Assembly: GCF_000328765.2 (NCBI RefSeq)
Contig: NC_019954.2
Location: 2,339,769 to 2,363,768 of the forward strand
DNA length: 24,000 bases
From: Tepidanaerobacter acetatoxydans Re1
Lineage (GTDB): Bacteria; Bacillota; Thermosediminibacteria; Thermosediminibacterales; Tepidanaerobacteraceae
Direction: 5' to 3'
Numbering within the stretch: the first letter of the stretch is position 1; every line of letters starts with the position of its first letter. A program made the translations under genes and the position numbers. Below the pieces are notes generated by a model. That model saw only the letters and a list, made by a program, of their open reading frames with translations, did not search any database and was not told where the DNA came from. Positions 1,621 to 23,380 of this stretch are shown here, piece after piece.

Positions 1621-2556
1621 TTAATTATGCGGTTTGAGTGGTTCGATAAACTCTTTATATTTTTTTATTCGTTTTTTATAATCATCACTTTTTTTAATGT
1701 CATTATATCTTAGAGTGTTGTTTTTAATGTCATTGGCATGTTTAAACTTTCCTGGCAATGTGTCATGAGCATGTTCTAATTGTTCTTCCGGAAATACAAA
1801 GCAAACTTTATTATCTACAATCTTAACATCTCCTTCAATGCCGCATAAGCAACAAATTGCTTTAGTACTATCATTACTTAGAAAGAAGTTCCTGCTGTGG
1901 CAATGAGGACATACTCCTTCTTCTCCTAAATATTCTGCCTTTTCAAAGTTTACAGCAGCCAGAGCCAAATTTCTTCCAATTTTGTGTGCTCGAGCAACCT
2001 TTTCATCATCTGCGATGATTCCCAACGACCATGGAAAAACTTCATTTTCAATGATCTTCCACATTGGAGTCAGCGCTAACATTGCCATGTCGCATTGAAC
2101 TCTCGTCATCCAATCCGAACCGCCAATTCCCATAAAAGAAATAACCTTGTCCTTAATAATTCTGGGATCAATTGGCTTTCCATGTCCCTCTTCCGCCATT
2201 TTGGTTGCAATCACGTTGTTACCCCGATCCATTCGAGGGCCAAATCGATCGGTAATGGTATGGAAAAGTCCCAATGCTCCTTTTTCAAAAATCGGAGTAG
2301 CGAATACGATTCCGTCAGCGTCTAGCATTTTATCAAGTAGCCAGTCAAAATCATCATTTAAAACACACATGTTCCCTTTTCCCGAAAAAAGTGATTGAAC
2401 ACATGTTGTGCAACCGGTACAATATTTAATATCTAAGTCCATTAAGTGAATAAACTCTACCTCAGCTCCTACTTCCTTTGCTCCTATTAATGCTTCTTTG
2501 CACATTGAATCATTTGCACCATTTTTTGTTCCTCCGGAAATTCCTAAAATCTTCAT
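1621..2556 (-). CDS. Flavodoxin-like-fold FMN reductase / iron-sulfur flavoprotein (Isf-like) with C-terminal zinc-ribbon-like extension
   Basis: The track ORF runs to 2586, but AGGAGG lies 9 nt before the ATG at 2556 (MKILGISGGTKNG...), so I use 2556 as the start. Flavodoxin-like motifs are present (ILGISGG, ADGIVFATPIF). The compact Cys motif C-x2-C-x2-C-x11-C (YCTGCTTCVQSLFSGKGNMC) resembles those of Isf-type 4Fe-4S flavoproteins. The C-terminal CPHC...CCLC pair suggests a zinc ribbon. Confidence 0.8.
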   Translation of the reverse strand: MKILGISGGTKNGANDSMCKEALIGAKEVGAEVEFIHLMDLDIKYCTGCTTCVQSLFSGKGNMCVLNDDFDWLLDKMLDADGIVFATPIFEKGALGLFHTITDRFGPRMDRGNNVIATKMAEEGHGKPIDPRIIKDKVISFMGIGGSDWMTRVQCDMAMLALTPMWKIIENEVFPWSLGIIADDEKVARAHKIGRNLALAAVNFEKAEYLGEEGVCPHCHSRNFFLSNDSTKAICCLCGIEGDVKIVDNKVCFVFPEEQLEHAHDTLPGKFKHANDIKNNTLRYNDIKKSDDYKKRIKKYKEFIEPLKPHN

Positions 2557-2964
2557 GCTTTCTATCCTCCTAAAAAATTTTAGCAATTACTTAAAACATA
2601 AATCCCCTTCTTAAGCAATAAAATCCGAAAACAGTTTTTGAATAAGTTTTTGCTAAGTTATTTAGAATTTTATGTAAAGTAATTGCTTTTTGAATGTTGC
2701 TGTGATTATTATATCCTAACTGCTTAGTAAAGTCAACTATTTGTTGAAGTTTTTCAAAAAATAAAATTCTGTCAACATATTTCCGAATTACAGTAGAATT
2801 AAACCAGCAAGCCAGTTTCATCCCTGACTCTCTTATAAAAAAATAACCTTAAGGTTTAGCCAATCCTTAGATAGACTCTTTTCGCTTGCGAGTGTTACAT
2901 CTTCTACCTTAAATTGAACTTTCCTTGCTTTGTTAAATTCTATATAGTCGAGAAAAGAATTGCC

Positions 2965-7758: not shown

Positions 7759-7829
7759 CATAAAATCCACTTTTTTTCTATATTTTTATGACAGAGGTGA
7801 AATAGTAACAAAGTAAAGGTCAGCAAGGC
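7756..7829. repeat. 74-bp direct repeat, copy 2 (orphan permease 3' end fused to the tsaA-like gene)
   Basis: 73/74 identical to 2965-3038. The permease reading frame would read ...HKNIEKKWIL*, but no permease body precedes it. Instead it abuts codon ~125 of the TsaA-like ORF in a different frame. Confidence 0.95.
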
Positions 7830-8203
7830 TTAATATCAAGCACGGGGGTGCCATCCAGCATATCTACTCCTTCAAAAATCAGCCGGTTATTTTCTTTTTT
7901 AATAAATCGGACAATGGACATTCCTATGCCGTTTGGACGGTTGGGAGATCTTGTAGAAAACACGCCCATAATTTTATTGCTTTTGCGGGACAGTGTCGTT
8001 AGTTTATAGCCTTCGGATTTGTGAAAGTAGAACAATACGACGCCGTATTCCCCTTCCTTAATATCAGCTATGCCTTCCACATACTCATCCAATATCTCAA
8101 TAACAGCTGTCGTTCCTTGTGAGAGTGTACTTTGTTTGGCAGCGGCAGTCTTGTCTTTATAAGGCGATCGGATATAGCCGATAGGTTTCATTAAAATCTC
8201 CAT
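7820..8203 (-). CDS. TsaA/YaeB (TrmO) family SAM-dependent methyltransferase-like protein, C-terminus cut at the repeat junction
   Basis: PIGYIRSPY..., GVFSTRSPNRPNGIGMSIVRF, and DGTPVLDIKP are hallmark TsaA-family motifs. The ORF ends VLDIKPC* exactly where the 74-bp repeat begins (7829), so the residues that normally follow VLDIKPY are missing. RBS AAAGGAGG upstream of ATG 8203. Confidence 0.8.
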   Translation of the reverse strand: MEILMKPIGYIRSPYKDKTAAAKQSTLSQGTTAVIEILDEYVEGIADIKEGEYGVVLFYFHKSEGYKLTTLSRKSNKIMGVFSTRSPNRPNGIGMSIVRFIKKENNRLIFEGVDMLDGTPVLDIKPC

Positions 8204-8394
8204 TGATTTCCTCCTTTTTGTGCAACATATTTTATCTGTGCCTGTGTTCGTATTCTGCTATGTTGTTAAACATCAGATGAGGCGCTGCAAGACGGCTTCA
8301 TCCAGCCGTCTTTACTGTATTAACGATTAGTAGTAACTGTCCGGTTTACTCAACTAAGTTAAATTACCATGATGAAAGGAATTAAGGTCTTCCC

Positions 8395-8715
8395 TTATTT
8401 TTTATCATCTCCCGAATACTTTTTATGAACCAATAACATCTCGTTGGTAATATCCCTTAACAATTCCGTCGACATCATTTGGTCTTCAGCATGCATCAAT
8501 AAAAGAGATAGCTCAATTGGCTCTTGAGTTTCCTGTTGCAGCAACTCTCTATGTATCTCATGGGCTTTTAACAGACTTTCGTCTGCACTTTCAATAAGCT
8601 TCTCTGCTGCTTTAAAGTCTTCTTCCCTAGCAGCTTTTAAAGCTTTAAACAGAAATGATTTCGCATCTCCGACATTGCTTATCATTTGAAAATTTAATAA
8701 TTCCATGCCTTCCAT
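8395..8715 (-). CDS. PTS EIIA component, lactose/cellobiose family
   Basis: 106-aa all-helical protein. Has ISNVGDAKS...A and a LLMHAEDQMM motif with the conserved His, typical of ChbA/LicA-type EIIA. Confidence 0.85.
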   Translation of the reverse strand: MEGMELLNFQMISNVGDAKSFLFKALKAAREEDFKAAEKLIESADESLLKAHEIHRELLQQETQEPIELSLLLMHAEDQMMSTELLRDITNEMLLVHKKYSGDDKK

Positions 8716-8757
8716 ATGTCCACCATCTTTCTATATCTGTTGTATCAATTATTATTA

Positions 8758-9723
8758 TTATTTTAATTTTAATTTTAAGGGAGCTGTCCTTGTCTTCATA
8801 TAATTGTGCATCCATTCTTCTGTAGCCACTTGATAAATCGTTTTGTTGTTTTCAACAGTACATGTATAAACAGTTGGCGGCAATTTTTCGGTAGCTACTA
8901 CAAAGGAAAACTCTTTAATATTTGTAGCAGCCCCAAATTCTCCTTTATTGTTTATGCAAACTACGGAGATATCTCCCGCCTTTTGCCTTCTACTTATAAG
9001 CAGGTTAGTAAGTTCGAAGACGGCCTTATCCGCTGCCTCTTGAGGGGCATAACCATCCTTCATCAACCTGACTACTTCATAAGAGATGCACCCTTTCATT
9101 ATATCCTCTCCCAGTCCCGTAGCAGTAGCGCCTCCTATCTTGCTATCTACATAGAAGCCTGAGCCGGATAGCGGAGAATCTCCCACCCTTCCTCTTTTCT
9201 TCATAAAAAGGCCGCTTGTAGACGTACCGCTTGCCATAGAATTGGCCAAGTCAAGAGCAACCATTCCTACAGTGTCATGACCGTCATAGGGACTGAGCCC
9301 CTTATTTACCGTTTCTTTCAATCTGTTTTTATAATGGATAATGGCTCTTTCAGTAAGCATATTCATCCTTTCGAATCCATTTTTATGAGCATATTCCTCT
9401 GCTCCGTATCCTACCAAAAATGAATTAAATCTTTCTTCGCTCAACTTTCTGGCTATGCTGATAGGATTCTTAAAATCTTTAATCGCCGCAACAGCTCCAA
9501 TGGATAAACTATCACCATCCATATATGCCGCATCGAGTTCAACTTCCCCGTTTTCGTTAGGAAGGCCTCCGTATCCGACAGATTTATAGTAAGGAAAATC
9601 CTCTACCATCTTTATAGCTGTTTCAATGGCATCTCCTGAACTTCCTCCGTTAGAAAGCAGCTTTGCTGATTTTTCAATGCCTTCCAAGGCCATTCTCCAG
9701 GTGCCTATGATTGCCCAGCCCAT
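8758..9723 (-). CDS. Ntn-hydrolase of the asparaginase-2 family, glycosylasparaginase-like (N4-(beta-N-acetylglucosaminyl)-L-asparaginase), cytoplasmic
   Basis: Autoprocessing/nucleophile motif GHDTVGMVALD. Also TSGLFMKKRGRVGDSPLSGSGFY and GLGEDIM. The N-terminus GWAIIGTW resembles the Trp-containing sugar-binding start of glycosylasparaginases rather than the HGGAG start of IaaA-type enzymes. No signal peptide. Confidence 0.75.
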   Translation of the reverse strand: MGWAIIGTWRMALEGIEKSAKLLSNGGSSGDAIETAIKMVEDFPYYKSVGYGGLPNENGEVELDAAYMDGDSLSIGAVAAIKDFKNPISIARKLSEERFNSFLVGYGAEEYAHKNGFERMNMLTERAIIHYKNRLKETVNKGLSPYDGHDTVGMVALDLANSMASGTSTSGLFMKKRGRVGDSPLSGSGFYVDSKIGGATATGLGEDIMKGCISYEVVRLMKDGYAPQEAADKAVFELTNLLISRRQKAGDISVVCINNKGEFGAATNIKEFSFVVATEKLPPTVYTCTVENNKTIYQVATEEWMHNYMKTRTAPLKLKLK

Positions 9724-9757
9724 GCTATCGCCTCCGCCTCTATTTATTTTGCTTCAT

Positions 9758-10885
9758 CTATTTTGCCAAATTATATATAGCTTGAGCAAATATTTTGCTG
9801 TTTAATATTATATCCTCTATGCTCATATATTCATTTGGATTATGAGAAATTCCTTTCTGCCCAGGAAAAGAAGGTCCAAAAGGCACAATGTTAGGCATTA
9901 TTTTTGCATAAGTTCCCCCTGTGGTTGTAACTGGCGTTCCATCTAATTTTGTAACCTCTTCATATGCCTTTTGCAGTGATTTAATCAGAAAAGAATTTTT
10001 GTCGAATTTAACAGGGTTATAGTTTAAAAGAAGATTTAATTTTATGTTTTTCGAGAGCTTTGATTTTATTCTTTTTATTATTTCATCGATGCTTACAATT
10101 GCCGGATAGCTTAAGCTAAGATTAAACAGAAATTTAGAATCCTCGATATGAATATTATGGCCCCTCATCTCCATAACGCCAAATTCCGCATCGCTAAAAT
10201 CAATGCCTAATCTATCTCCACAGCTTTTACTAGATAGAATATAATCATTTAAAAAACCGAAAAACTCATCAGCGGCGTTTTTATAGTTTTTGTCATTATA
10301 CTCAATTTCAAATTGAATATTTGCCCTTCCTCTTTCTCCATATACAACGGGATATTTACAATCAGGGGTAAATCCCATTACGGGTGGTTTTTCTTTCTTT
10401 AAATAATATCGAACATCATTAAATCCGCTTTCTTCATCGGTGCCGAATATTATTCTAACTGGCTTGCTCAACTTTAATCGAGATTCTTTAATAGCGTATA
10501 AGGCATATAGCGCAGCTAAAATCGGTCCTTTGTTATCTAATACGCCTCTGCCATATATTTTTTCATCTTCAATATGCCCGCTAAAAGGTGGAAACTTCCA
10601 TCCTTCTCCTGCAGGCACTACATCCAAATGTCCTATAACTCCTATATACCCCTCTTCTTTATCCCCGTACTGAGCATATCCAATATAATTATCTAAATTT
10701 TTTGTTTTAAAGCCTAAATTCTCTGCTATATCTAATGTCACAAATAGCGCTTCTTTTATTCGGTCTCCAAATGGTGCATTATCTTTCGGTTCATCTTTGA
10801 CACTGGGTATATTGACCACTTCTATTATAGACTTCAATAGTTTTTCCTTATATTCATCAATCTTATCATTTAAAACCTGTTCCAT
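9758..10885 (-). CDS. M20-family metallopeptidase, PepV/Sapep-like dipeptidase (short form, 375 aa)
   Basis: GHLDVVPAGEGWKFPPFSGHIEDEKIYGRGVLDNKGP, IIFGTDEESG, and GFTPDCKYPVVYGERG are PepV-type metal and catalytic motifs. It is about 90 aa shorter than canonical PepV. Confidence 0.8.
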   Translation of the reverse strand: MEQVLNDKIDEYKEKLLKSIIEVVNIPSVKDEPKDNAPFGDRIKEALFVTLDIAENLGFKTKNLDNYIGYAQYGDKEEGYIGVIGHLDVVPAGEGWKFPPFSGHIEDEKIYGRGVLDNKGPILAALYALYAIKESRLKLSKPVRIIFGTDEESGFNDVRYYLKKEKPPVMGFTPDCKYPVVYGERGRANIQFEIEYNDKNYKNAADEFFGFLNDYILSSKSCGDRLGIDFSDAEFGVMEMRGHNIHIEDSKFLFNLSLSYPAIVSIDEIIKRIKSKLSKNIKLNLLLNYNPVKFDKNSFLIKSLQKAYEEVTKLDGTPVTTTGGTYAKIMPNIVPFGPSFPGQKGISHNPNEYMSIEDIILNSKIFAQAIYNLAK

Positions 10886-10913
10886 TTTTAAGTCTCCATC
10901 GTAAAAGTTGAGA

Positions 10914-10944
10914 TATGAGGTAGCCTTTGCAGAGCTACCTCATA
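10914..10944. other. Perfect 11-bp stem hairpin between the GrdB-like and M20 genes
   Basis: TATGAGGTAGC (10914-10924), 9-nt loop, GCTACCTCATA (10934-10944). There is no clear U-tract on the minus (coding) strand, so it is not a canonical terminator. Confidence 0.6.
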
Positions 10945-10950
10945 ATATTT

Positions 10951-11472
10951 CTAATAACATATTTTTTTCGCTAGTTCCTCTATATCTTCTTTATCAAACA
11001 TTTTTCTTGCTAAAACACAGATATTGTTCAATGATTCGCTTAATCCGATGCCTCCCTTTTTAGGCATCTTTACAATATGTAAAACATCCTTATATTCTGA
11101 AATAACATCTTCATTTTCTTTTGACATAGCAACTACAACCGGTATATCTGTTTTTTCTTGTATATTTTTGCCAACAACAGCGCACATATATGCATATCCT
11201 TTATAGTTATATGCCGGTCCGCAGATAACTACATCAGGGTTTATTTTTTTCACCATAGCAGTCATTTTTTTAGTTGCTATTTCTTCGTTTTCTTTAAAAT
11301 AATCATTGCCGCAATACAAACAAGCTATAATTTCGCCATCTACGTTTTTAAGATGCGGTTCGATCATGGGAGCTGAGCCTATTGCGCCCCTTTTGCCTCC
11401 AAGGGGAAGATCCGACCTTTCCTTGCCTCCCATTCCTGCTTGTATTTGGTCAAATACCATCAAAACTCTCAT
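10951..11472 (-). CDS. GrdB-related protein (homologous to the N-terminal ~170 aa of glycine/sarcosine/betaine reductase selenoprotein B only)
   Basis: MRVLMVFDQIQAGMGGKERSDLPLGGKRGAIGSAPM... parallels the GrdB N-terminus (RVVHYxNQFFAGIGGEEKA....G.vGPG). IACLYCGNDYFKENEEIA...INPDVVICGPAYNYKGYAYMCAVVGKNIQEKTDIPVV parallels the following GrdB segment. The ORF ends with TAG, so there is no UGA/Sec and no C-terminal catalytic half. Confidence 0.65.
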   Translation of the reverse strand: MRVLMVFDQIQAGMGGKERSDLPLGGKRGAIGSAPMIEPHLKNVDGEIIACLYCGNDYFKENEEIATKKMTAMVKKINPDVVICGPAYNYKGYAYMCAVVGKNIQEKTDIPVVVAMSKENEDVISEYKDVLHIVKMPKKGGIGLSESLNNICVLARKMFDKEDIEELAKKICY

Positions 11473-11517
11473 CTTAACCTTTTAACCTCCAGTTTACTGC
11501 CGTCACCGGCAACTGAC

Positions 11518-12864
11518 TTAAAGATCGTCCAAAGATAAGTCTTCAAATGAAATATCAGCCAACTCATCTTCTTCGCTCTGAGATTCTTCGTCTTTTAGGT
11601 AACTCTTATCAAGTATCTTTATGAACGGGTAGTATACTACACAACCTAAAATCAACAATAAAAATTGGAATGCCGATGCCCTCAAGCTGCCTGTTGACAA
11701 ATATCCTGAGAAACCCAAGGGTGTTGTCCACGGCAGTGAAACACCATTGGTATAGGGTAAAAATCCTGTTTCAAAGGCTATTGCCGATAAAATTGTATTC
11801 ATCAAAGGCACGCCAATAAAGGGTATAACCATTATAGGATTTAGCACTATCGGAAGGCCGAATATGATAGGCTCGTTGATTCCGAAAATGCCCGGCACAA
11901 TCGATAATCTTCCTAATTGCTTAATTCTTTCCGACTTGCACACTGTTACCATAAGAATAACTAAAGAAAGCGTGCTTCCTCCTCCGCCAAATGTTTGAAA
12001 AAGGTCAACAAACTGTCCTGTGTATATATGAGGCAATGGCAATCCTGCTTCAAAGGCCGCCAAGTTTTCCATCGACAAAGTTCTAAATATTGGAGAAAAA
12101 ACTGAATTTGCAACTGCAGGTCCGTTTATTCCAAAGAACCAGAAAATAGAACATGATACAACGTAAACAATTTGTGCTCCTAAACTATTTCCAACCCCCA
12201 TTAACGGAGCCTGCAGCACAGTATATATAAAATTATGTGCAGATTCATATGGTGTAAGCTCAAATCCAATTCTCACCAAGAAAAATATGAACATCACTAG
12301 GAAACTCGGTATTAAAGCTGCAAATGAATCAAAAACAGCAGGCGGCACTCCCTGTGGCAGCTTTATTGTCCAGCCCTTTTTGTATCCCCAGTTGAATATT
12401 TGAACTGACAAAATCGAAACAAGCATTGCTAAAAATATTCCATTTGTGCCTATATAAGAAAAGCTTATAGCTCTTACAAAAGATGGCCCTTCTACGCCTT
12501 CATACGGAATTGCCGTAGGCATTAAGATTATAAAGGATACCAGCGAAACAACCGCTCCTTGTATTTTGTCTGCTCCTATTTCTCTAGCATAAGCATATCC
12601 TATGCCCACTACTGTTAATATTGATATTATATCAAAAGTTGCCCGTGCAACGTTAGAAAAATATGATTCCCAACCTGTTCCAAATATTCTTGCCCAAAAC
12701 TCGGACCAGCCCGGCACCGGAAAGTTTGCAAACAATATAAACATAGAGCCGACAATAATCACCGGCGTTGAAACTAGAAATCCATCACGTATAGCAACTA
12801 AAATCTTGTTTTTGCCCAACATATCCGCAATAGGCATTAGAGTCTTTTCTAGTTTATTAAACAT
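11518..12864 (-). CDS. PTS EIIC component, lactose/cellobiose (chitobiose) family, with acidic C-terminal tail
   Basis: 448-aa polytopic protein with typical ChbC/CelB-like blocks (GINEPIIFGLPIVLNP, FGGGGSTL). It starts 2 nt after the EIIB stop. The tail reads DEESQSEEDELADISFEDLSLDDL. Confidence 0.9.
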   Translation of the reverse strand: MFNKLEKTLMPIADMLGKNKILVAIRDGFLVSTPVIIVGSMFILFANFPVPGWSEFWARIFGTGWESYFSNVARATFDIISILTVVGIGYAYAREIGADKIQGAVVSLVSFIILMPTAIPYEGVEGPSFVRAISFSYIGTNGIFLAMLVSILSVQIFNWGYKKGWTIKLPQGVPPAVFDSFAALIPSFLVMFIFFLVRIGFELTPYESAHNFIYTVLQAPLMGVGNSLGAQIVYVVSCSIFWFFGINGPAVANSVFSPIFRTLSMENLAAFEAGLPLPHIYTGQFVDLFQTFGGGGSTLSLVILMVTVCKSERIKQLGRLSIVPGIFGINEPIIFGLPIVLNPIMVIPFIGVPLMNTILSAIAFETGFLPYTNGVSLPWTTPLGFSGYLSTGSLRASAFQFLLLILGCVVYYPFIKILDKSYLKDEESQSEEDELADISFEDLSLDDL

Positions 12865-12866
12865 TA

Positions 12867-13199
12867 TTATTCTCCCTTCTTTTTGTGATTTTTCATAAGT
12901 AATATTGCTTTCTTTAAAACCTTCTCCCCATCCATCATTCCATAATCAGCGGAATCAATGACTCCAACTGGAACATTATAGTTTACCAGCCTTCTTTTGG
13001 TATCCTCCAACAAATGGCTAACCTGAGGACCTAATAAAACACAATCAGGGTTCTTTTCCTCCATGATTTTTTCTAAGGTTTTAATTGAATGAGCTTTTAC
13101 CTCAAGAGGCAGATTGTGTTTTTCCCCTATATCTTGCATTCTTTTAGCAAGCATGCTTGTGCTCATCCCTTGATCGCAAAAAAGATAAATCTTTTTCAT
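12867..13199 (-). CDS. PTS EIIB component, lactose/cellobiose family
   Basis: MKKIYLFCDQGMSTSMLAKRM carries the phospho-Cys loop (CxxGMSTS). It is 110 aa. RBS GGGAGGTG lies upstream. Confidence 0.9.
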   Translation of the reverse strand: MKKIYLFCDQGMSTSMLAKRMQDIGEKHNLPLEVKAHSIKTLEKIMEEKNPDCVLLGPQVSHLLEDTKRRLVNYNVPVGVIDSADYGMMDGEKVLKKAILLMKNHKKKGE

Positions 13200-13212
13200 C
13201 TTTATTCACCTC

Positions 13213-13247
13213 CCAATTGTTGTAATTATATTAATTGCAATTATTGG
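13213..13247. promoter_or_regulatory. Imperfect 16-bp-arm palindrome in the EIIA-EIIB intergenic gap (candidate operator / internal promoter / RNA hairpin)
   Basis: CCAATTGTTGTAATTA-tat-TAATTGCAATTATTGG, with 13/16 complementary positions. A minus-strand TATAAT (13230-13225) sits at its centre with no recognisable -35. Confidence 0.35.
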
Positions 13248-13262
13248 CTTTTTCTTTTATGT

Positions 13263-13733
13263 TTAAAACTTTGATTTAACATTTGCATAGCTACAAATCA
13301 GCCGGGCTATTTCCTTCTTTGTATCAGCGTTTAACAATCTTTTTACAGCTTCCACATCTCCCAGTGAAGAAAACAGCTGCCCTATTTTCTCCAATCCTTG
13401 TTCTATCTCGTTGCCTTGTGGAATGACAAACATGATAATAAGTTTTACTAAATTCCCCTTTTCATCCCAAATAATAGGATCTTTTGTTTTTAAAACAGCC
13501 ACCGCTGTTCTAACTACATGCTTGGACCAGCCATGAGGAATCGCTAAATAATCTCCTGCATATGTAAAACCTCTGCTTTCTCTTTCATATATATCTTTTA
13601 AAAAACCCGGTTTATCCAAAACAGCTCCTGACTCTACTAGCAACTCCGCAAGTTTATCTATGGCTTCCTCCTTAGAACTTACATTAAAATCTATAAGAAT
13701 ATTATCCTCGGTAATTAGGCTTTTACTTTCCAT
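13263..13733 (-). CDS. PTS EIIA component, fructose/mannitol/Ntr type (PTS_EIIA_2)
   Basis: 156 aa with the DYLAIPHG active-site His motif. ATG 13733 is preceded by AGGAGGGG (6-nt spacing) and overlaps the regulator stop by 11 nt. Confidence 0.85.
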   Translation of the reverse strand: MESKSLITEDNILIDFNVSSKEEAIDKLAELLVESGAVLDKPGFLKDIYERESRGFTYAGDYLAIPHGWSKHVVRTAVAVLKTKDPIIWDEKGNLVKLIIMFVIPQGNEIEQGLEKIGQLFSSLGDVEAVKRLLNADTKKEIARLICSYANVKSKF

Positions 13734-15528
13734 ATTGCCCCTCCTTATCCAACCCTTCTCTTATCAAAAACCTTATAACTTTTGATAAGAAGCTATAATC
13801 GGAATAATCGACGGCAATTATACATTTTTTCTCAATGAGGTATTTCCGAGCCGAGTTTGCTTTCTCTGCTCTAAGGTATAAATAGATGTTATCTTTAACA
13901 TGAATCAGCTCATCTTCAATAAGCAAACTTATAAATTCTTTTATTCCCTCTTTATCATCAATAAATTTTATAGAAATCTCTTCATGTTCTGAGGAAATCG
14001 ATTTTTTCTTGCTTTCTAATATATTTTCTATATAGTTTTTTACATTTTCTTTATCTATTTCATTTAAAAAAGCTGATATTATTAAATAAGGTTTATCCGT
14101 GTCCAAATCCACTGTGGAGACTATTAAATCTACTTTCTCTAAATCAGCACTATTAATCGCATTAGATGAAATTATCCCTGAAATTTCGATATTGCTGAAA
14201 GTCTTTGCCAATCTTGCAGCCAATAATCTGCTGGTGCCATAGCCACTATGGCATATTACTACTGTTCGCACCTTTATGGCACTGGCCATTTTTTCGTTTT
14301 CAGAAATAAAATAGGATAGAATATATGCCACTTCATGATCGTTTATCATATTTACTCCATATCTGTTGCAGAGTAAAAAGCAGCCAACCTTTACTATAAA
14401 AAATTCTTCTTCAAATTCCCTTAAAAAATCATCCAATAAAGGATTTTTAATTTGAATATTATATTTTGCCCTGTTGAGCATAGGCCTTACATGCAGCAAT
14501 AATTTATCGTATAAATCAAGGCTTAAATCATAATTGACATCCAGCATTTGAGATATAATGCTTATTAAATCCTTGGTAAAATATACATAGGATAAATCAG
14601 CTTCTTTAATACATTTTTTATCATCTTCAAAACTTAGTCCGACGGATATTAGATATTTATACACATAAGCAATTTCTTGTTTGTTAATCTTAATATCAAA
14701 TTTCTTTTCTATTTCCTTAATTAAATATACGGCAGCGTCATACAGCCTTTCATTCATCGCTAGCATAGAATTATTGTAATCTGGATTATCTTCAATATAG
14801 TTTCCGTTAATTATCCTATTTGTCATAATAACCAAATGACTTAGCAAATTTGTATAATAGGGTTCATAGATTACCAGCTTCAATTCATTCTCCAATTTGT
14901 TTAGCAGCTCTTCGAAAAATGAAATAGACTTGCTGTTTAGCATGCTATTTATTTCAGCAATATTAAGCTCCTTATGCCGGATGCTTTGATATTCGGATAT
15001 ATAACCGGGATTGATTTTAGCATATTCTTGAATAGTAGAAACCAAAGCTTTTCTGATATTTATCTCACTGCCGATTATTCTGGTTCCCTTCAAGGTTTTT
15101 GAAAGTTCCAAGTTATATTTTTTTAACCTTTCCTGAACTTCTTTTAGGTCATTATTAATGGAAGTCCTGCTCACCATATATTTATCTGAAAGTTTCTGGA
15201 TTGTGGTGTACTTGTTTGTATTTATAAGTAGATTTAACAGAATTTCAGTTCTTCTATCCTCTACAGTCTTGTCGCTGTCAAGAGGTGATATATTATTTAA
15301 TATCTCATTTAGCTTATCTAGCTGAGGCAAGGTATAGCATAGCTTAATCCCTCTTCCTTGCTTCCTCTCTATTCTGGCACCGGTGGGACTAATAATTTCC
15401 TCAATATCATCAAGATCCTTTGATATTGTTTTCATTGATGTGCCAAATATAGCAGAAAAATATTTTATCGGCTGATAATCATCTTGAATTATTAATTTTT
15501 TCAGTAAATCTACTTGTCGCCTATTCAT
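13723..15528 (-). CDS. PRD-domain PTS-controlled transcriptional regulator (LicR/MtlR/ManR-like: HTH + Mga-like HTH + 2 PRD + EIIB-like), lacking the usual C-terminal EIIA domain
   Basis: N-terminal HTH (IKYFSAIFGTSMKTISKDLDDIE). Second HTH (TIQKLSDKYMVSRTSINNDLKEV). PRD-like helices with conserved His (LLSHLVIMTNRI, LLLHVRPMLNRA). EIIB(Gat/Cel)-like loop VVICHSGYGTSRLLAARL. Confidence 0.85.
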   Translation of the reverse strand: MNRRQVDLLKKLIIQDDYQPIKYFSAIFGTSMKTISKDLDDIEEIISPTGARIERKQGRGIKLCYTLPQLDKLNEILNNISPLDSDKTVEDRRTEILLNLLINTNKYTTIQKLSDKYMVSRTSINNDLKEVQERLKKYNLELSKTLKGTRIIGSEINIRKALVSTIQEYAKINPGYISEYQSIRHKELNIAEINSMLNSKSISFFEELLNKLENELKLVIYEPYYTNLLSHLVIMTNRIINGNYIEDNPDYNNSMLAMNERLYDAAVYLIKEIEKKFDIKINKQEIAYVYKYLISVGLSFEDDKKCIKEADLSYVYFTKDLISIISQMLDVNYDLSLDLYDKLLLHVRPMLNRAKYNIQIKNPLLDDFLREFEEEFFIVKVGCFLLCNRYGVNMINDHEVAYILSYFISENEKMASAIKVRTVVICHSGYGTSRLLAARLAKTFSNIEISGIISSNAINSADLEKVDLIVSTVDLDTDKPYLIISAFLNEIDKENVKNYIENILESKKKSISSEHEEISIKFIDDKEGIKEFISLLIEDELIHVKDNIYLYLRAEKANSARKYLIEKKCIIAVDYSDYSFLSKVIRFLIREGLDKEGQYGK

Positions 15529-15647
15529 ATTAAATATTCCTTTCTAACTAATAAAATTATATATGTATACATTCTACAAATCTATCACATATGACTTCCT
15601 TAATGATAAGTAAAATATGTTCAGTGTGTGGTTAAATATTATTTACA

Positions 15648-15656
15648 TGTTATAAT
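15648..15656 (+). promoter_or_regulatory. Extended -10 promoter element of the folate operon
   Basis: TGtTATAAT (TATAAT = 15651-15656), 45 nt upstream of ATG 15702. The -35 is weak (TGGTTA at 17-nt spacing). RBS AAGGAGGA lies at about 15688-15695. Confidence 0.55.
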
Positions 15657-15701
15657 AGGGTTAAATATCGTAAAATATGTGCATAAGCAAGGAGGAAATC
15701 A

Positions 15702-16058
15702 ATGATTTTAACAAGAAAATTCAAGTTTGATGCAGCTCATAATCTCGTGGAATATCATGGAAAATGTGAAAAACTCCACGGGCATACGTATAAGCTTGTC
15801 GTTAAATTAGAGGGCAAGCCCGGAAAAGAAGATATGATTATGGATTTTTCTGAGCTAAAACACGTTGTTGAATCCAAAATATTGCAGCAGCTGGACCACT
15901 CCTATCTGAATGACTTTATAAAGCAACCTTCTGCCGAAAATATCGCCAAATGGATTTGGGATAGACTATATGATGAATTATCTAGGGAAAACTGCCGACT
16001 TTATGAAATCCAGGTTTGGGAAACAGAAAATTGTGGCATCATGTACAGGGGTGAATGA
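15702..16058 (+). CDS. 6-pyruvoyl-tetrahydropterin synthase family protein (QueD-like; probable PTPS-III/FolB-replacing type)
   Basis: FKFDAAHNLVEYHGKCEKLHGHTYKLVV carries the T-fold PTPS/QueD motif Cx3HGH, here C-E-K-L-H-G-H. It is 118 aa and the first gene of a folE2-folP-folK operon. Confidence 0.85.
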   Translation: MILTRKFKFDAAHNLVEYHGKCEKLHGHTYKLVVKLEGKPGKEDMIMDFSELKHVVESKILQQLDHSYLNDFIKQPSAENIAKWIWDRLYDELSRENCRLYEIQVWETENCGIMYRGE

Positions 16059-16833
16059 TTTGTTAAAAGATATCCAAAGCCAAATAGATACTCGAGGTAT
16101 TTCACTAAACAGAGTAGGCATCAAAAACATTGACTGGCCCTTAAAGGTATATGACCAAACAAACGGATTTCAAAATACCGTTGCCAATATTAGCCTTTCT
16201 GTAGCCTTAAATCACGATATAAAGGGAACTCATATGAGTAGATTTGTAGAAGTCTTAAATAATATAGATATTCTAAACCCTCAGATTATTTTAAGCATCT
16301 TAAGCAGCATACAAACAAAGCTTGATGCCGAAAGCAGTTTTTTTGAATGCAAGTTCCCATATTTTATTTGGAAAGAATCGCCTGTAAGCAAGAATATATC
16401 GCCGCTTAAAATTGAAGCAATGATATTGGGTGAGAAAAACCGCGATGAAACTGAAATAATTATCGGGGTTGTGGTTCCCGTGCAGACTCTCTGTCCATGT
16501 TCTAAGGCTATTAGCAGCGTTGGTGCTCATAACCAGCGGGCAAATGTTAAAATCCTTGTAAAAACCAAAAAGAAAATTTGGTTTGAACATTTAGCAGCAA
16601 TTGCAGAAATGTCTGCATCAAGCCCTGTTTATTCCCTATTAAAGCGTGAAGATGAAAAATATGTAACCGAAGCAGCCTATAATACGCCAAAATTTGTAGA
16701 AGATGTGGCAAGAGATGCGGCTCTTTTGCTGGAGAAAGAAGACGGGCTTAAATGCTACAGGGTGGAAGTAGAAAGCCATGAAAGTATTCACAATCACGAA
16801 GCTTTTGCTTGGGTTGAAAAAGCATTAAGTTGA
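16051..16833 (+). CDS. folE2: GTP cyclohydrolase IB (FolE2/MptA family)
   Basis: DIQSQIDTRGISLNRVGIKNIDWPLKV..., GTHMSRF, and CPCSKAIS...AHNQR are FolE2-type motifs. The track ORF starts at 15970 inside the upstream gene. The likely true start is GTG 16051 or TTG 16060 (AGGGGTG RBS), overlapping the upstream stop. Confidence 0.85.
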   Translation: MNDLLKDIQSQIDTRGISLNRVGIKNIDWPLKVYDQTNGFQNTVANISLSVALNHDIKGTHMSRFVEVLNNIDILNPQIILSILSSIQTKLDAESSFFECKFPYFIWKESPVSKNISPLKIEAMILGEKNRDETEIIIGVVVPVQTLCPCSKAISSVGAHNQRANVKILVKTKKKIWFEHLAAIAEMSASSPVYSLLKREDEKYVTEAAYNTPKFVEDVARDAALLLEKEDGLKCYRVEVESHESIHNHEAFAWVEKALS

Positions 16834-16850
16834 AGGGAGATAGCTTTGAT

Positions 16851-18041
16851 ATGATATTAGAAATATCTCAAGAATATCTAAAAAATGAAATGAAAAAAGT
16901 CAATGCACATCCCGCATCTTTTAATATTTTTAAAGACAAGTCCATGATAATTCCTCTTAAACTCTTTGATATACCTACACCCGGAGCAAATATCATAAAA
17001 CAAGAAATGCTTTCATCGGGCGGTGATGCCGTAGTTCATAAAAATGCCGTAGATTGCAATGTTGAAACTTCAGATATAATCCTTCTCGGCACTAAAAAAC
17101 ACTACAATATCTTGATGGAAAAACTTCAAAAGATGCCTTATTTTAAGTTAGACAAAGCTTGCTGCGAACTTAAGAAATTTTTTTCAACAGAAAAAACAAA
17201 CTTTATAAAATCCCCTTGGGGCAGAACTTTAAGCTTTGACAAGACTCGTGTTATGGGCATAATAAATGTCACTTCTGATTCATTTTACTCTGGTTCTCGA
17301 AAGCAAAGCATACAAGAAATATTAGACACTGCCCGAGATATGATACAATCGGGTGCAGATGTTGTCGATATAGGCGGAATGTCAACTAGGCCCGGCTCCG
17401 ACCCCATCAGCGAGGAAGATGAGGCAAAAAGGGTTGTTATGGCCATAAAAGCTATAAGGGAAAATTATCACGATATAATGATTTCCGTAGATACCTATAG
17501 GTCAAATGTAGCGGAAAAAGCTTTAGAGGCAGGCGCTGATATAATAAATGACGTAAGCGGATTTAGTTTTGACCAAAAACTGGTAGAGGTAGCAGCTAAA
17601 AGCAATGCACCATATATCCTTATGCACATAAAAGGCACCCCTAAAAATATGCAAGAAAATCCTACATATGATGACCTTATAAAAGAAATTGCACAGTATT
17701 TTATCGATAAGATTAACTATGCAATAAGTTTCAACATGGATGAAAACAATATAATTCTCGACCCGGGCCTAGGCTTTGGAAAAACCTATAAAGATAACAT
17801 GGAGATAATGGACAGAGTTCGTGAGCTTCAAAGTCTTCACAGGCCTTTACTTATTGCCGCATCAAGAAAGTCTTTTATCGGTAAGGCTCTTGATTTAAAA
17901 TCTGCTGACGATAGACTGGAAGGTACTCTTGCCATTACCGCACTTTGTGCCTATCAAGATGTGGATATGGTGCGAGTGCACGATGTAAAGGAAAACGTCA
18001 GGATTATTGAAATGGTGGAGGCGATAAAGTGCCGCAGGTGA
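16851..18041 (+). CDS. folP: Dihydropteroate synthase with ~130-aa N-terminal extension
   Basis: The DHPS core runs from TRVMGIINVTSDSFYSG through DIGGMSTRPG, DTYRSNVAEKALEAGADIINDVSG, and DPGLGFGK. I prefer the ATG at 16851 (GAAGGGAGA 10 nt upstream) over the track TTG at 16830. Confidence 0.9.
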   Translation: MILEISQEYLKNEMKKVNAHPASFNIFKDKSMIIPLKLFDIPTPGANIIKQEMLSSGGDAVVHKNAVDCNVETSDIILLGTKKHYNILMEKLQKMPYFKLDKACCELKKFFSTEKTNFIKSPWGRTLSFDKTRVMGIINVTSDSFYSGSRKQSIQEILDTARDMIQSGADVVDIGGMSTRPGSDPISEEDEAKRVVMAIKAIRENYHDIMISVDTYRSNVAEKALEAGADIINDVSGFSFDQKLVEVAAKSNAPYILMHIKGTPKNMQENPTYDDLIKEIAQYFIDKINYAISFNMDENNIILDPGLGFGKTYKDNMEIMDRVRELQSLHRPLLIAASRKSFIGKALDLKSADDRLEGTLAITALCAYQDVDMVRVHDVKENVRIIEMVEAIKCRR

Positions 18042-18496
18042 TAATAGCGTTTGGAAGTAATATGGGCAATAAAGAACAAAACATTAAAACAGCTTTAGAA
18101 AAAATGAAGGCCCGCGGACTTAATATAATCAAGGTTTCAACCATAATAGAGACAGAACCATATGGTTATGAAGACCAAGACACTTTTTTAAACGGGGCAT
18201 GTATTGCAGATACAAATCTTTCTCCTCAAGAAGTTTTAAAAGAGCTGCTTGCTATTGAGCAAGAGATGGGGAGAGTGCGAAAAATCCACTGGGGGCCGAG
18301 AAATATAGATCTTGACATTATCTTCTATGAAAATATTATAGTTGATGAAGACAATCTTAAAATCCCCCACCCCGATGCCCATAACCGCTCTTTTGTCTTA
18401 GGTCCTATATGCGAAATATCTCCCTCTTTTTTGCACCCAATATACAACAAACCCGTAAAAGAACTTTATGAAGAACTGAAAAAGCAGAATCATTAA
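18029..18496 (+). CDS. folK: 2-amino-4-hydroxy-6-hydroxymethyldihydropteridine diphosphokinase
   Basis: IAFGSNMGN, ETEPYGYEDQDTFLNG, GPRNIDLDIIFY, IPHP, and RSFVL are HPPK motifs. GTG start overlaps the folP 3' end by 13 nt. Confidence 0.9.
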   Translation: MPQVIIAFGSNMGNKEQNIKTALEKMKARGLNIIKVSTIIETEPYGYEDQDTFLNGACIADTNLSPQEVLKELLAIEQEMGRVRKIHWGPRNIDLDIIFYENIIVDEDNLKIPHPDAHNRSFVLGPICEISPSFLHPIYNKPVKELYEELKKQNH

Positions 18497-18686: not shown

Positions 18687-20105
<1,419 letters not shown>

Positions 20106-20114
20106 TCATACCTC

Positions 20115-22004
20115 CTATATACGCGACGCGATAGTATACCCTTCGAAAACGGCTTCCATTATTTTTCGGGGTTTCTCGCAGTCTCCAATTGTAAAGGTAT
20201 CCGGCGTAATACCGTAAAAACTTTCGGCTACTGTCCTGTTAGCAGTCACCCCAGTAGAAATTATTACGGTATCAGCTTTTAAAAACTTCTCCTCACCGTT
20301 CTTGGGAACAACGATAACACCATCCTTTGTTATCTCTTTGCACGTGGTTTCTAGCATTCGCTTAAGTGTGCTCACTGCATCCATTTTTTGCCTTAGCGCT
20401 ATCTTATACAGCATATTGCCCTGTGCGGCAAGTTCGCCCGTAGGCTCTACTATAGTGACTTTTTTATGCTTCAGTTCTGCCAGCTCCAGCCCTATTTCTG
20501 CACCTATTGTCCCACCGCCTATTATCACTACATTTTGTCCGATACAGTCCTGATTGTCTATGGCCTCATAAAAATCAGTAACGTTTATTCCGTCAATACC
20601 TTTTATAGGTGGTTTGGCAGGAATAGAACCAACTGCTATAAAAATGGCATCTGGGCACATGCTTTTTACCATCTCCGGGGTCGCAGCTATGTTCAGTCTT
20701 ATATCGATATTATGCTTTTCCACCTGCCTGAGAAGATGGTCAAGATACAACCTGATATCTTGTTTATAGTACTGCTTCACGATATGGCATAACGCCCCGC
20801 CAAGACGGTCGTTTTTTTCAAATAGAGTTACCTTGTGTCCTCGTTTGGCTGCAGTAAGTGCAGCCATAATACCTGCCGGGCCGCCACCGACAACAACAAT
20901 ATTTTTTACTGTTTCGGCCTTTTCTAGGTTTTTTATTACAAATGATTCATTTGTAAACCTCGGATTCACCGAACAGCCGACGTTTTTTCTGTTTGTAGAA
21001 ATATGGTAGCATTGAAGGCAGCGAATACACGGCACTATGTCGTCCGTTTTACCGTCCTTTGCTTTATTGGGCCAGTCGGGATCGGCTATAAAGCTTCTAC
21101 CAAATGCAACCAAATCTACCGCACCGGATGCTATAAGCTCTTCCGCCTCGTAAGGATTCATCACTGCACCTACAACCGAAACCGGAATGCTTACATTCTG
21201 CTTTACAATCCGCGCATATTTTGCATTTGGCATATGCTCTTTAAAATTAGTAGTAACCATATGCACATTGCCCTCATGGTTTATGTCAAGCCCGCAAGAA
21301 ATCTGCACGGTGTCTATCAGAGGTTCCACCAGTTTGATGAACTTAAGCGTATCCTCGAACTCAATAGAGCCCTCCACCCACTCCACCGAGCTGATACGCA
21401 TATCCACGGGATAATTCGGCCCAACCGCCTGCCTTACCTTTTCAAGTATCATTTTAGGGAACCTTGCACGGTTTTCAAACGAACCGCCATATTCATCGGT
21501 GCGCTTATTAAATAATGGCGATAAAAATTGTGGTGGCAACCAACCGTGTCCAAAGTGCATGAATACCATGTCGAAACCCAAGTCGCGTGCGTCCTTTGCG
21601 GCCTGTGCATAACAATTGGCTACATGCTCCATCATTTCGGGAGTCATGGCCTTCACTTCCACACCATCTTCTCGAATGAAACCTACAGGTCCCACCGCAT
21701 AGTCTATCACTCGAGCGTACTGGCCTGCGTGAAAAAGTTCCAGTGACGCCTTAGCACCTGACTGGTGGCATTTGCGTATCCTTGATTGAGCTTCCTCCAC
21801 CGAATATTTGTGGAATAAATAGGGCTCGTTTCCGCTGGCAAAACTGGACCTTCCCGGCTCTACAATGGTATGTCCGCATATAACTATTCCGGCACCTCCA
21901 AGAGCTTTTTCTTCAAATACATCACCTGTAGGAGCGGCCACTATTCTATTTCTTGAAACCATATTGTTTATTTTTATAGGGCTATACAAGTTTGGAAATT
22001 GCAT
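20115..22004 (-). CDS. Fe-S flavoenzyme of the 2,4-dienoyl-CoA reductase / clostridial 2-enoate reductase family (OYE-like FMN barrel + FAD/NAD(P) domains)
   Basis: N-terminal OYE-type barrel (HGWLPPQFLSPLFNKRTDEYGGS). 4Fe-4S motif C-x2-C-x2-C-x11-C (CIRCLQCYHISTNRKNVGC). Two Rossmann GxGxxG motifs (VVVGGGPAGIMAA, VIIGGGTIGAEIG). I use the ATG at 22004 (GAGGAG 7 nt upstream) because the track's GTG at 22019 lies inside that RBS. Confidence 0.85.
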   Translation of the reverse strand: MQFPNLYSPIKINNMVSRNRIVAAPTGDVFEEKALGGAGIVICGHTIVEPGRSSFASGNEPYLFHKYSVEEAQSRIRKCHQSGAKASLELFHAGQYARVIDYAVGPVGFIREDGVEVKAMTPEMMEHVANCYAQAAKDARDLGFDMVFMHFGHGWLPPQFLSPLFNKRTDEYGGSFENRARFPKMILEKVRQAVGPNYPVDMRISSVEWVEGSIEFEDTLKFIKLVEPLIDTVQISCGLDINHEGNVHMVTTNFKEHMPNAKYARIVKQNVSIPVSVVGAVMNPYEAEELIASGAVDLVAFGRSFIADPDWPNKAKDGKTDDIVPCIRCLQCYHISTNRKNVGCSVNPRFTNESFVIKNLEKAETVKNIVVVGGGPAGIMAALTAAKRGHKVTLFEKNDRLGGALCHIVKQYYKQDIRLYLDHLLRQVEKHNIDIRLNIAATPEMVKSMCPDAIFIAVGSIPAKPPIKGIDGINVTDFYEAIDNQDCIGQNVVIIGGGTIGAEIGLELAELKHKKVTIVEPTGELAAQGNMLYKIALRQKMDAVSTLKRMLETTCKEITKDGVIVVPKNGEEKFLKADTVIISTGVTANRTVAESFYGITPDTFTIGDCEKPRKIMEAVFEGYTIASRI

Positions 22005-22034
22005 ATCGTTTCTCCTCACTTAGAAATTTTAGAT

Positions 22035-22066
22035 AAAAAAGAATAGTTATGAACTATTCTTTTTCA
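22035..22066 (-). terminator. Intrinsic terminator/attenuator hairpin between EIIC and the reductase gene
   Basis: AAAAGAATAGTT (22037-22048), loop atga, AACTATTCTTTT (22053-22064). On the minus strand it is followed by a T-run (complement of A6 at 22035-22040). It lies about 20 nt after the EIIC stop at 22086. Confidence 0.65.
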
Positions 22067-22085
22067 CTTGTTTTCAGCTATGCAC

Positions 22086-23363: not shown

Positions 23364-23380
23364 AAAATACCTCTTTTCTA

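Follow-up and report, generated by a model that had tools for sequence, protein, structure and literature searches.

The window analyzed here, a stretch of 24,000 nucleotides (nt) from Tepidanaerobacter acetatoxydans Re1 (contig NC_019954.2), contains a minus-strand operon of eight co-directional open reading frames (ORFs) that runs from position 15528 to position 8395. It is likely that this operon encodes a system of the kind described for the enterococcal ega locus, in which N-acetylglucosaminyl-asparagine (GlcNAc-Asn) would be imported and 6-phosphorylated by a phosphotransferase system (PTS) of the lactose/cellobiose (Lac/Cel) family and cleaved in the cytoplasm by a glycosylasparaginase, with an M20 metallopeptidase acting on glycopeptides and a PTS-sensing PRD activator controlling the genes. 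GlcNAc-beta-Asn is the linkage stub that remains after proteases and endo-beta-N-acetylglucosaminidases have broken down N-glycoproteins. The window copy would extend an enterococcal pathway for this stub to a digester anaerobe, in the form of an ega-type system with a variant regulatory module.

In Enterococcus faecalis, GlcNAc-L-Asn is reported to be taken up through a Lac/Cel PTS whose genes belong to the ega (enterococcal glycosylasparaginase) locus (OG1RF_10933-10939; Combret et al., Res Microbiol 175:104169, 2023/24). The parts named for that locus are a glycosylasparaginase, Lac/Cel EIIB and EIIC proteins, a GrdB-like "putative oxidoreductase," and a dipeptidase. The original prediction for the window operon, namely, PTS uptake of GlcNAc-Asn with cytoplasmic de-amidation, is supported by this precedent together with the clade of the hydrolase, the linkage of the genes across genomes, and the identities of the EIIB and EIIC proteins. 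The accompanying claim that such chemistry is undescribed was mistaken; the PTS route for GlcNAc-Asn and the de-amidation of the phosphorylated conjugate have already been published (Combret et al.), and the basic chemistry is not new.

Gene content and organization of the operon

The ORF coordinates and the matches to Pfam and NCBIfam profiles, by which families were assigned to the proteins of the window, agreed with the eight same-strand genes and the families first proposed for them (Table 1). In transcription order, successive genes are spaced by -11, 63, 2, 45, 65, 34, and 42 nt; the predicted range of -11 to 63 nt was correct at its lower end and fell short at its upper end, the largest gap being 65 nt. 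No glycoside hydrolase, NagA, or NagB was found in the operon with the Pfam and NCBIfam profiles, in keeping with the prediction, and the GH1 gene of the window (18687-20099) lies in a second PTS operon. Tepidanaerobacter syntrophicus carries an equivalent eight-gene operon, with 86 to 95% amino acid identity, beside matching folate-biosynthesis genes. Recurrence of the arrangement in T. syntrophicus and, with the genes in other orders, in dozens of species of Firmicutes shows that it is not due to chance.

Table 1. Genes of the operon and candidate flanking elements, in order of transcription
Feature	Position	Strand	Evidence
Candidate promoter/operator block	15529..15628	-	Cross-genome conservation, directly 5' of regulator gene
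PRD activator, MtlR/LicR/ManR type, 601 amino acids	13723..15528	-	Pfam HTH_11/Mga, PRD (1e-21), PTS_IIB
EIIA(Mtl/Fru type), stand-alone, 156 amino acids, H67 in AIPHG	13263..13733	-	PF00359 (PTS_EIIA_2), 3e-32
Lac/Cel-family EIIB, 110 amino acids, active-site C8	12867..13199	-	PF02302, 6e-17
Lac/Cel-family EIIC permease, 448 amino acids	11518..12864	-	TIGR00410, 413 bits (cutoff 236)
GrdB-like protein without selenocysteine, 173 amino acids	10951..11472	-	NF041545 (GrdB_like_no_Se), 262 bits (cutoff 175)
Short M20 metallopeptidase, Sapep/PepV-like, 375 amino acids	9758..10885	-	TIGR01887, 370 bits (cutoff 208)
Leaderless putative glycosylasparaginase, Ntn hydrolase, 321 amino acids	8758..9723	-	Pfam Asparaginase_2 and residue pattern
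EIIA(Lac/Cel), 106 amino acids, H75	8395..8715	-	PF02255, 3e-29
Hairpin AAGACGGCT-GGATGA-AGCCGTCTT	8289..8312	-	Read from sequence, 83 nt past last stop codon

Assignment of the Ntn hydrolase

The clade of the hydrolase was called from score ranking and residue pattern, not from a formal tree. Among solved structures, the best matches were the Flavobacterium/Elizabethkingia glycosylasparaginases (E value of 1e-61, 212 bits, residues 5 to 280), with lower scores for human ASRGL1-type isoaspartyl peptidases (129 bits), Escherichia coli EcAIII (117 bits), and taspase (69 bits). This comparison, which had been suggested along with the original prediction, groups the protein with the glycosylasparaginases. 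Against the beta-aspartyl-peptidase equivalog NF007589 it reached 120 bits, where the cutoff is 567.

When the hydrolase was aligned with 237 homologs and the Flavobacterium enzyme, W9, T151, R179, D182, T202, and G203 were found to correspond to Flavobacterium W11, T152, R180, D183, T203, and G204 and were invariant among the homologs (W9 in 233 of the 237, the other four being gapped at this position). T169, equivalent to Flavobacterium T170, was T or S across all 237, and the glycosylasparaginase-specific N-terminal T-W motif was invariant among the aligned homologs. The autoprocessing site is H149-D150-T151, and autoprocessing is predicted to occur between D150 and T151. The N-terminus, MGWAIIGTW, is the first strand of the mature enzyme and leaves no room for a signal peptide; the hydrolase is thus without one. 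The glycosylasparaginase-like N-terminus, the processing site, and the lack of a signal peptide had all been noted previously, and each was borne out.

These features indicate that the protein is most likely a cytoplasmic enzyme of the glycosylasparaginase clade, N4-(beta-GlcNAc)-L-asparaginase (EC 3.5.1.26), which is also the name given to its homologs by NCBI; labels at JGI for some homologs read isoaspartyl peptidase/L-asparaginase-like. Identification as an isoaspartyl peptidase or a plain asparaginase was ruled out by the score ranking and residue pattern. Beside the sugar-stacking Trp, the window enzyme has R10 (shared by 231 of the 237 homologs) and M11 (invariant), in contrast to N12 and F13 in Flavobacterium, and L204 is invariant where the secreted Flavobacterium enzyme has H205. 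Residues R10, M11, and L204 mark the cytoplasmic Firmicutes glycosylasparaginases, and R10, adjoining the sugar-stacking Trp, might contact a 6-phosphate or a different O6 substituent. The enterococcal homologs sampled, which do not include E. faecalis EgaG, also carry R10 and M11.

Conservation of the gene linkage

The GrdB-like protein, the rarest component, was used as the anchor of a linkage survey in which one genome per species was scanned and the presence of neighbors was scored by tblastn with the window proteins. A total of 330 GrdB-like loci were obtained, and counts out of 80 refer to the best 80 of these. An EIIC gene ended at most 400 nt upstream of the GrdB-like gene in 77 of the 80 loci, making EIIC, and not the asparaginase, the closest partner of the GrdB-like protein. 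The asparaginase (at least 50% identity, same strand, within 10 kb) was present in 69 loci, including 46 of the 51 with at least 8 kb of flank on both sides, and an M20 peptidase accompanied the GrdB-like gene in 70 loci; the M20 neighbor cluster, which covers 68 of the loci, has a median length of 374 amino acids. EIIC, asparaginase, and M20 were found together in 66 loci, and EIIA(Lac) in 56. The linkage, the conservation of which had been proposed as a check of the prediction, is strongly conserved.

The taxa surveyed include Clostridioides difficile, Paraclostridium, Romboutsia, Erysipelotrichaceae, Lachnospiraceae, Enterococcus, Vagococcus, and Companilactobacillus, and the asparaginase homologs looked up in Tissierellales and Clostridium paraputrificum likewise adjoin Lac/Cel PTS genes. 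In C. difficile (locus L053) the order is regulator, IIA, IIB, IIC, GrdB-like, asparaginase, M20, and CutC; a literature search returned no paper on this copy. Recurrent neighbors that have no copy in the window were CutC-family proteins (48 loci), RDD-family membrane proteins (45), M42 aminopeptidases (26, usually as two copies), YitT (23), MupG-like 6-phospho-glycosidases (18), GH4 (11), and ChbG (9). An aspartase gene was present in 8 of the 80 loci, the C. paraputrificum locus has both aspartase and malic enzyme, and an Enterococcus locus has an AsdA-like aminotransferase; these neighbors fit aspartate as a product of the pathway. The linked genes thus extend over several hundred Firmicutes species, going by the 330 GrdB-like loci and the best 80 examined among them, and this breadth suggests that PTS-dependent scavenging of glycoamino acids is common and not an enterococcal specialty. 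It also flags genes of interest, namely, those for the EIIC-coupled GrdB-like protein and the short M20 peptidase and, elsewhere, those for CutC, RDD-family, M42, and MupG-like proteins.

Comparison with enterococcal loci and the transport proteins

As E. faecalis was found neither among the best 80 loci, nor among the top 120 matches of three protein searches (one of them seeded with an enterococcal asparaginase), nor in a plasmid collection, Enterococcus phoeniculicola and Enterococcus gilvus were used as stand-ins. The E. phoeniculicola locus consists of genes for the AsdA-like protein, GntR (LSA1692), and M20 (433 amino acids), followed after a 0.7-kb gap by asparaginase, EIIB, EIIC, GrdB-like protein, two M42 peptidases, and EIIA. 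On an E. gilvus megaplasmid, the annotated order is GntR (LSA1692), Sapep dipeptidase, asparaginase, EIIB, EIIC, and EIIA. Both gene orders match the published ega order, and NCBI models exist for this neighborhood (NF041545, GrdB-like; NF041547, "GntR, LSA1692 subfamily"). Identities between the window and E. phoeniculicola proteins were 59% for the asparaginase, 58% for EIIB, 62% for EIIC, 57% for the GrdB-like protein, and 37% for M20, and those with E. gilvus were 57% for the asparaginase, 51% for EIIC, and 48% for EIIB, a level of similarity that is approximately that expected of orthologs.

As the ega locus is described, it and the window operon have in common a leaderless glycosylasparaginase, adjacent Lac/Cel EIIB and EIIC genes, and a GrdB-like gene after that for EIIC. 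Both also encode a dipeptidase of the M20 family, although the two may not be equivalent. The loci differ in several respects. The published description places the ega genes for the GntR regulator and the dipeptidase under one promoter, and the enterococcal genes form two transcription units, whereas the window has a single eight-gene unit. The dipeptidase is 433 amino acids long in enterococci but a 375-amino-acid short-lid form in the window, and the GrdB-like gene, described as a pseudogene in E. faecalis OG1RF, is intact in the window. In a later paper, the ega authors identify CelA1 as the EIIA of "the GlcNAc-L-Asn PTS" in E. faecalis, which has no dedicated EIIA and borrows this general one, whereas the window operon has its own EIIA(Lac).

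The EIIC of the window shares 51 to 62% identity, and its EIIB 48 to 58%, with the asparaginase-linked counterparts in Enterococcus, C. difficile, and Latilactobacillus, compared with 38 and 37%, respectively, for the paralogs within the window. EIIA(Lac) is about 33% identical both to the E. phoeniculicola EIIA and to its in-window paralog. On these values, EIIC is a probable EgaC-like GlcNAc-Asn transporter, while EIIA(Lac) appears to have no special relationship to the enterococcal EIIA, which fits the use of a general EIIA by E. faecalis. The product of 8395..8715 would nonetheless serve as the transport EIIA of the window system.

The GrdB-like protein and the short M20 peptidase

A full GrdB has about 430 amino acids and a C-terminal catalytic region that contains selenocysteine. 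The GrdB-like protein of the window matches only positions 1 to 165 of the 431 in the selenoprotein B profile and ends at 173 amino acids, without the selenocysteine region; a role as a glycine-reductase subunit was rejected on the absence of this region. Alignments of the family show conservation of D8-Q9, G13/G15/K17, Y53-C54-G55, C84-G85-P86, M116-S117, P137-K-K-G-G, and C172. An AlphaFold (AF2) model with a predicted local distance difference test (pLDDT) score of 97 suggests a flavodoxin-like alpha/beta fold, and no solved structure matched the protein at an E value below 1e-3. When 1.8 billion representatives were searched exhaustively with a profile, the family proved to be compact, with 40 clusters at E values of at most 1e-30 in which full-length members have about 160 to 177 amino acids and the rest are fragments. 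Full-length stand-alone members scored about 180 to 237 bits against the family profile, versus at most 96 bits for full-length GrdB/PrdB relatives, and the search revealed no fusion to EIIC or to another domain hinting at function. The protein is probably an accessory component, because several loci that are complete in other respects lack its gene, which in OG1RF is a pseudogene. A literature search gave no paper on what it does in this setting. One possibility is a deaminating hydrolase that would convert 6-phospho-GlcNAc-1-amine to GlcNAc-6-phosphate and ammonia at neutral pH, and such an activity would echo the C-N cleavage chemistry of the glycine-reductase relatives. The broader proposal, in which the GrdB-like protein would be a novel enzyme or accessory of the PTS specific to phospho-glycosylamine chemistry and the short-lid M20 protein a dedicated glyco-dipeptidase, with the PTS also feeding on glycopeptides, is speculative, and we regard it as rather unlikely.

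The lid of PepV/Sapep enzymes is two-lobed, spans about 200 amino acids, and allows them to function as monomers. The M20 protein of the window keeps the metal-binding and catalytic residues (H86, D88, D117, E151, E152, D175, and H348) but has no counterpart of Sapep residues 213 to 313, a segment of about 100 residues that makes up half of the lid. Its size and its alignment in one stretch match DapE-type enzymes (7UOI, residues 13 to 359), and it is a short-lid variant, probably with a DapE-like dimeric architecture. The E. phoeniculicola dipeptidase belongs to the same Sapep/PepV family, relative to which the window protein is about 60 amino acids shorter, with half of the lid missing.

The regulatory module

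The regulators MtlR, LicR, and ManR of Bacillus subtilis comprise a helix-turn-helix (HTH) region, a Mga-like domain, PRD1, PRD2, and EIIB(Gat)-like and EIIA(Mtl) domains in which a Cys and a His, respectively, are conserved. All of these domains are found in the window operon, but EIIA is a separate polypeptide; the regulator has HTH_11/Mga, a pair of PRDs, and an EIIB(Gat)-like domain, whose motif ICHSGYGTS contains C426, but no C-terminal EIIA, and EIIA(Mtl) is encoded by an ORF overlapping the regulator gene by 11 nt. Residues 1 to 508 of the regulator align with a fused 639-amino-acid regulator from a related locus, and the EIIA(Mtl/Fru) protein aligns with residues 501 to 601 of the fused regulator of locus L065. 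Among the related loci, a fused regulator of about 640 amino acids was present in 34 and the split form in 6 or 7, the latter only in the Tepidanaerobacter/Tissierellales group, where it is conserved, including in T. syntrophicus. The EIIA(Mtl/Fru) gene most likely represents the detached C-terminal regulatory domain of the activator. A second transport EIIA was considered for this gene and rejected on the grounds that, in the majority of related loci, the EIIA domain and the regulator form one protein. The initial classification of the gene as EIIA-Fru type stands as to family but not as to a role in transport, and with this domain assigned to regulation a single transport EIIA, of the Lac type, is left.

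The block at 15529..15628, about 100 nt long, hardly varies among five loci, two of which have unrelated upstream flanks. It reads ACTGAACATATTTTACTTATCATTAAGGAAGTCATATGT...TATAAT, followed by a ribosome-binding site, and includes the inverted repeat ACATAT-N22-ATATGT. The block is likely to contain the promoter and the activator site; this is our inference, because sigma-70 promoter scans of the window, like the terminator scans, performed at chance level. In the divergent intergenic region between the regulator and folate genes (15610-15683), the sequence GTAAAATATGT(T/G)CA occurs twice, 60 nt apart, with only the proximal copy falling within the conserved block, and a second direct repeat, GGTTAAATAT, is present in two copies 29 nt apart. 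At the other end of the operon, the hairpin at 8289..8312 has no U-run and was not reported by the terminator scan; it is a weak candidate and only possibly the operon terminator. No RNA elements were identified in the window with Rfam.

Relation to other known systems

Several E. coli PTS operons, frvABXR, sgc, and ypdDEFGH, contain genes for M42 or Xaa-Pro peptidases. As in the window, PTS permease genes are cotranscribed there with cytoplasmic metallopeptidases, and many relatives of the window locus carry M42; the E. coli operons differ in belonging to other PTS families and in having no asparaginase. The glycosylasparaginase of Elizabethkingia (Flavobacterium) meningoseptica (PDB 1P4K, 2GAW, and 4R4Y) and human AGA share the fold, autoprocessing site, and substrate-binding residues of the window enzyme. 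Those enzymes, whether secreted or lysosomal, have unphosphorylated GlcNAc-Asn as their substrate, whereas the window enzyme is predicted to be cytoplasmic and has R10/M11 in place of N12/F13.

The alf-2 locus of Lacticaseibacillus casei BL23 (Becerra et al., mBio 2020, PMC6960285) encodes the major facilitator superfamily (MFS) permease AlfH, AsnA2, and PepV, as the original prediction correctly stated. It resembles the window operon in linking a leaderless glycosylasparaginase to an M20 PepV-type peptidase and in converting a glycoamino acid to Asp and GlcNAc. It differs in that uptake is by AlfH, which is specific for 6'-fucosylated substrates, and not by a PTS, and in requiring the alpha-1,6-fucosidase AlfC and the kinase SugK, with no GrdB-like protein (PMC6960285). 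None of the AlfH, AlfC, and SugK families was found in the window operon with Pfam and NCBIfam profiles, and the operon, though not a member of the alf-2 pathway, resembles its downstream half in the way it works. In several lactobacilli, PTS genes adjoin asnA2 and pepV (PMC6960285). The Latilactobacillus curvatus locus brings together genes for an asparaginase (59% identity to the window hydrolase), GntR, a GrdB-like protein, a Lac/Cel EIIC, and a Sapep-type dipeptidase, and for Latilactobacillus sakei LSA1690-1693 the documented likeness is confined to EIIC (LSA1690), a GntR regulator (LSA1692), and asnA2 (LSA1693). Both species differ from the window in gene order and in their GntR regulator, and no EIIA or EIIB is annotated adjacently in the L. 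curvatus record.

Proposed pathway and alternatives

In the pathway we propose, phosphate from phosphoenolpyruvate and HPr would pass through EIIA(Lac), EIIB, and EIIC, and GlcNAc-Asn would enter the cell as 6-phospho-GlcNAc-Asn, in line with the general PTS mechanism and the E. faecalis work. The glycosylasparaginase, once autoprocessed, would cut the N4 amide in the cytoplasm to yield L-aspartate and 6-phospho-GlcNAc-1-amine, its action on a phosphorylated substrate being presumed; E. faecalis EgaG is reported to split the phosphorylated glycoamino acid into aspartate and 6-phospho-N-acetylglucosaminylamine. The tolerance of L. casei AsnA2 for an O6 substituent, fucose, on GlcNAc-Asn (PMC6960285) is in favor of this reading. 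The amine would then lose ammonia to give GlcNAc-6-phosphate, with which housekeeping NagA and NagB encoded elsewhere would continue. Since glycosylasparaginases need free alpha groups, the M20 peptidase may release the glycoamino acid from short glycopeptides. The GrdB-like protein could be an accessory factor associated with EIIC or with the phosphorylated product of EIIC, and it is dispensable in OG1RF, where its gene is a pseudogene. Expression would be driven by the PRD activator acting at the conserved block upstream of its own gene, with Cys426 of the EIIB-like domain and His67 of the separate EIIA(Mtl) sensing the PTS phosphorylation state, as the domain content suggests.

The family assignments, the conserved active site, the gene linkage, and the similarity to enterococcal loci are results of the analysis, whereas the substrate in Tepidanaerobacter, the phosphorylation of the intermediate, and the functions given to the peptidase and the regulator are inferred. 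A number of points weigh against the pathway. Orthology to ega is argued from other enterococci and the published gene description and not from E. faecalis sequences, and NagA and NagB have no copy in the window. The M20 protein, with 37% identity and a different lid, may not be functionally equivalent to the enterococcal dipeptidase. In L. casei, a pepV mutant grew normally on 6'-fucosyl-GlcNAc-Asn (6'FN-Asn) (PMC6960285), and a role of the peptidase in glycoamino acid use is therefore unproven anywhere. Finally, enterococci have a GntR repressor (EgaR, LSA1692 subfamily) where the window has a PRD activator and a split EIIA(Mtl). Regulator type does not, however, define the catabolic system, because it varies across related loci, which have fused PRD/EIIA_2, sigma54/PRD, or GntR regulators.

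An extension of the proposed pathway, which we consider possible but the less probable version, is that larger substrates such as glyco-di- or -tripeptides or chitobiosyl-Asn enter by the PTS and are trimmed by M20 before the asparaginase acts, with M42 aminopeptidases, MupG-like enzymes, or GH4/ChbG also trimming in other species. The linkage of a peptidase in 70 of the 80 loci, the paired M42 genes, and the MupG-like, GH4, and ChbG neighbors are in its favor, as are the need of glycosylasparaginases for free alpha groups on Asn (PMC6960285) and the ability of Lac/Cel EIICs to carry tri- and tetrasaccharides (later paper by the ega authors). M42, MupG, GH4, and ChbG are nevertheless all absent from the window operon, E. 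faecalis is reported to grow on plain GlcNAc-Asn via the ega PTS, and the L. casei pepV mutant had no phenotype on 6'FN-Asn.

That the substrate is another N-glycosyl-asparagine, for instance, Glc-beta-Asn from bacterial N-glucosylated adhesins, or an environmental glycoamino acid is improbable. The window is closest to Tepidanaerobacter, a host that is a digester anaerobe and not a gut commensal, and the R10/M11 signature departs from Flavobacterium N12/F13. The same signature is nonetheless carried by the sampled enterococcal homologs, EgaG not included, and E. faecalis uses GlcNAc-Asn; nothing points specifically to glucose. An ordinary cellobiose/chitobiose PTS lying beside an unrelated isoaspartyl peptidase/L-asparaginase and dipeptidase for salvage of beta-aspartyl peptides or asparagine is very improbable, for although EIIC falls only slightly below the cellobiose equivalog cutoff (413 versus 434 bits) and Asparaginase_2 also covers isoaspartyl peptidases, in agreement with some of the JGI labels, the hydrolase scores and the T-W motif favor glycosylasparaginase, the operon has no phospho-beta-glucosidase by Pfam and NCBIfam, and EIIC covaries with the asparaginase across phyla and is distant from the cellobiose-type paralog of the window.

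Other features of the window and its relatives

Directly downstream of the operon, a minus-strand ORF of 127 amino acids (7820-8203) encodes a TrmO/TsaA N-terminal domain that scores above the TIGR00104 cutoff; being short, the protein may be truncated or consist of a single domain. The second Lac/Cel PTS operon (18687-23999, minus strand) consists of genes for IIA, IIB, IIC, and a flavoenzyme, followed by the GH1 6-phospho-beta-glucosidase. The flavoenzyme (20115-22019, 634 amino acids) is an Fe-S protein of the old yellow enzyme (OYE)/FadH type that resembles BaiCD or bilirubin reductase, under all cutoffs. An ene-reductase within a PTS/phospho-glucosidase operon could signify uptake of an aryl- or flavonoid-glucoside followed by reduction of the aglycone. 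In T. syntrophicus, positions 13099-18496 of stretch L006, beside the ega-like operon, hold a further Lac/Cel PTS operon (IIA-IIC-IIB) that has no place in the window; it includes a metallopeptidase of the MlrC type (DUF1485/MlrC_C) together with a regulator in which PRD and EIIA_2 are fused, and is a second unit combining a PTS with a peptidase.

Near the start of the window, a bacterial chalcone isomerase gene (715-1554, minus strand; PF18232 N-domain, 1e-58) adjoins a gene for a 321-amino-acid FMN_red-family reductase (1621-2586, minus strand), with no NCBIfam model matching either product. We take this pair (715-2586) to resemble the chi/fcr flavonoid-degradation pair of Eubacterium ramulus, which would be unexpected in a Tepidanaerobacter-like genome.

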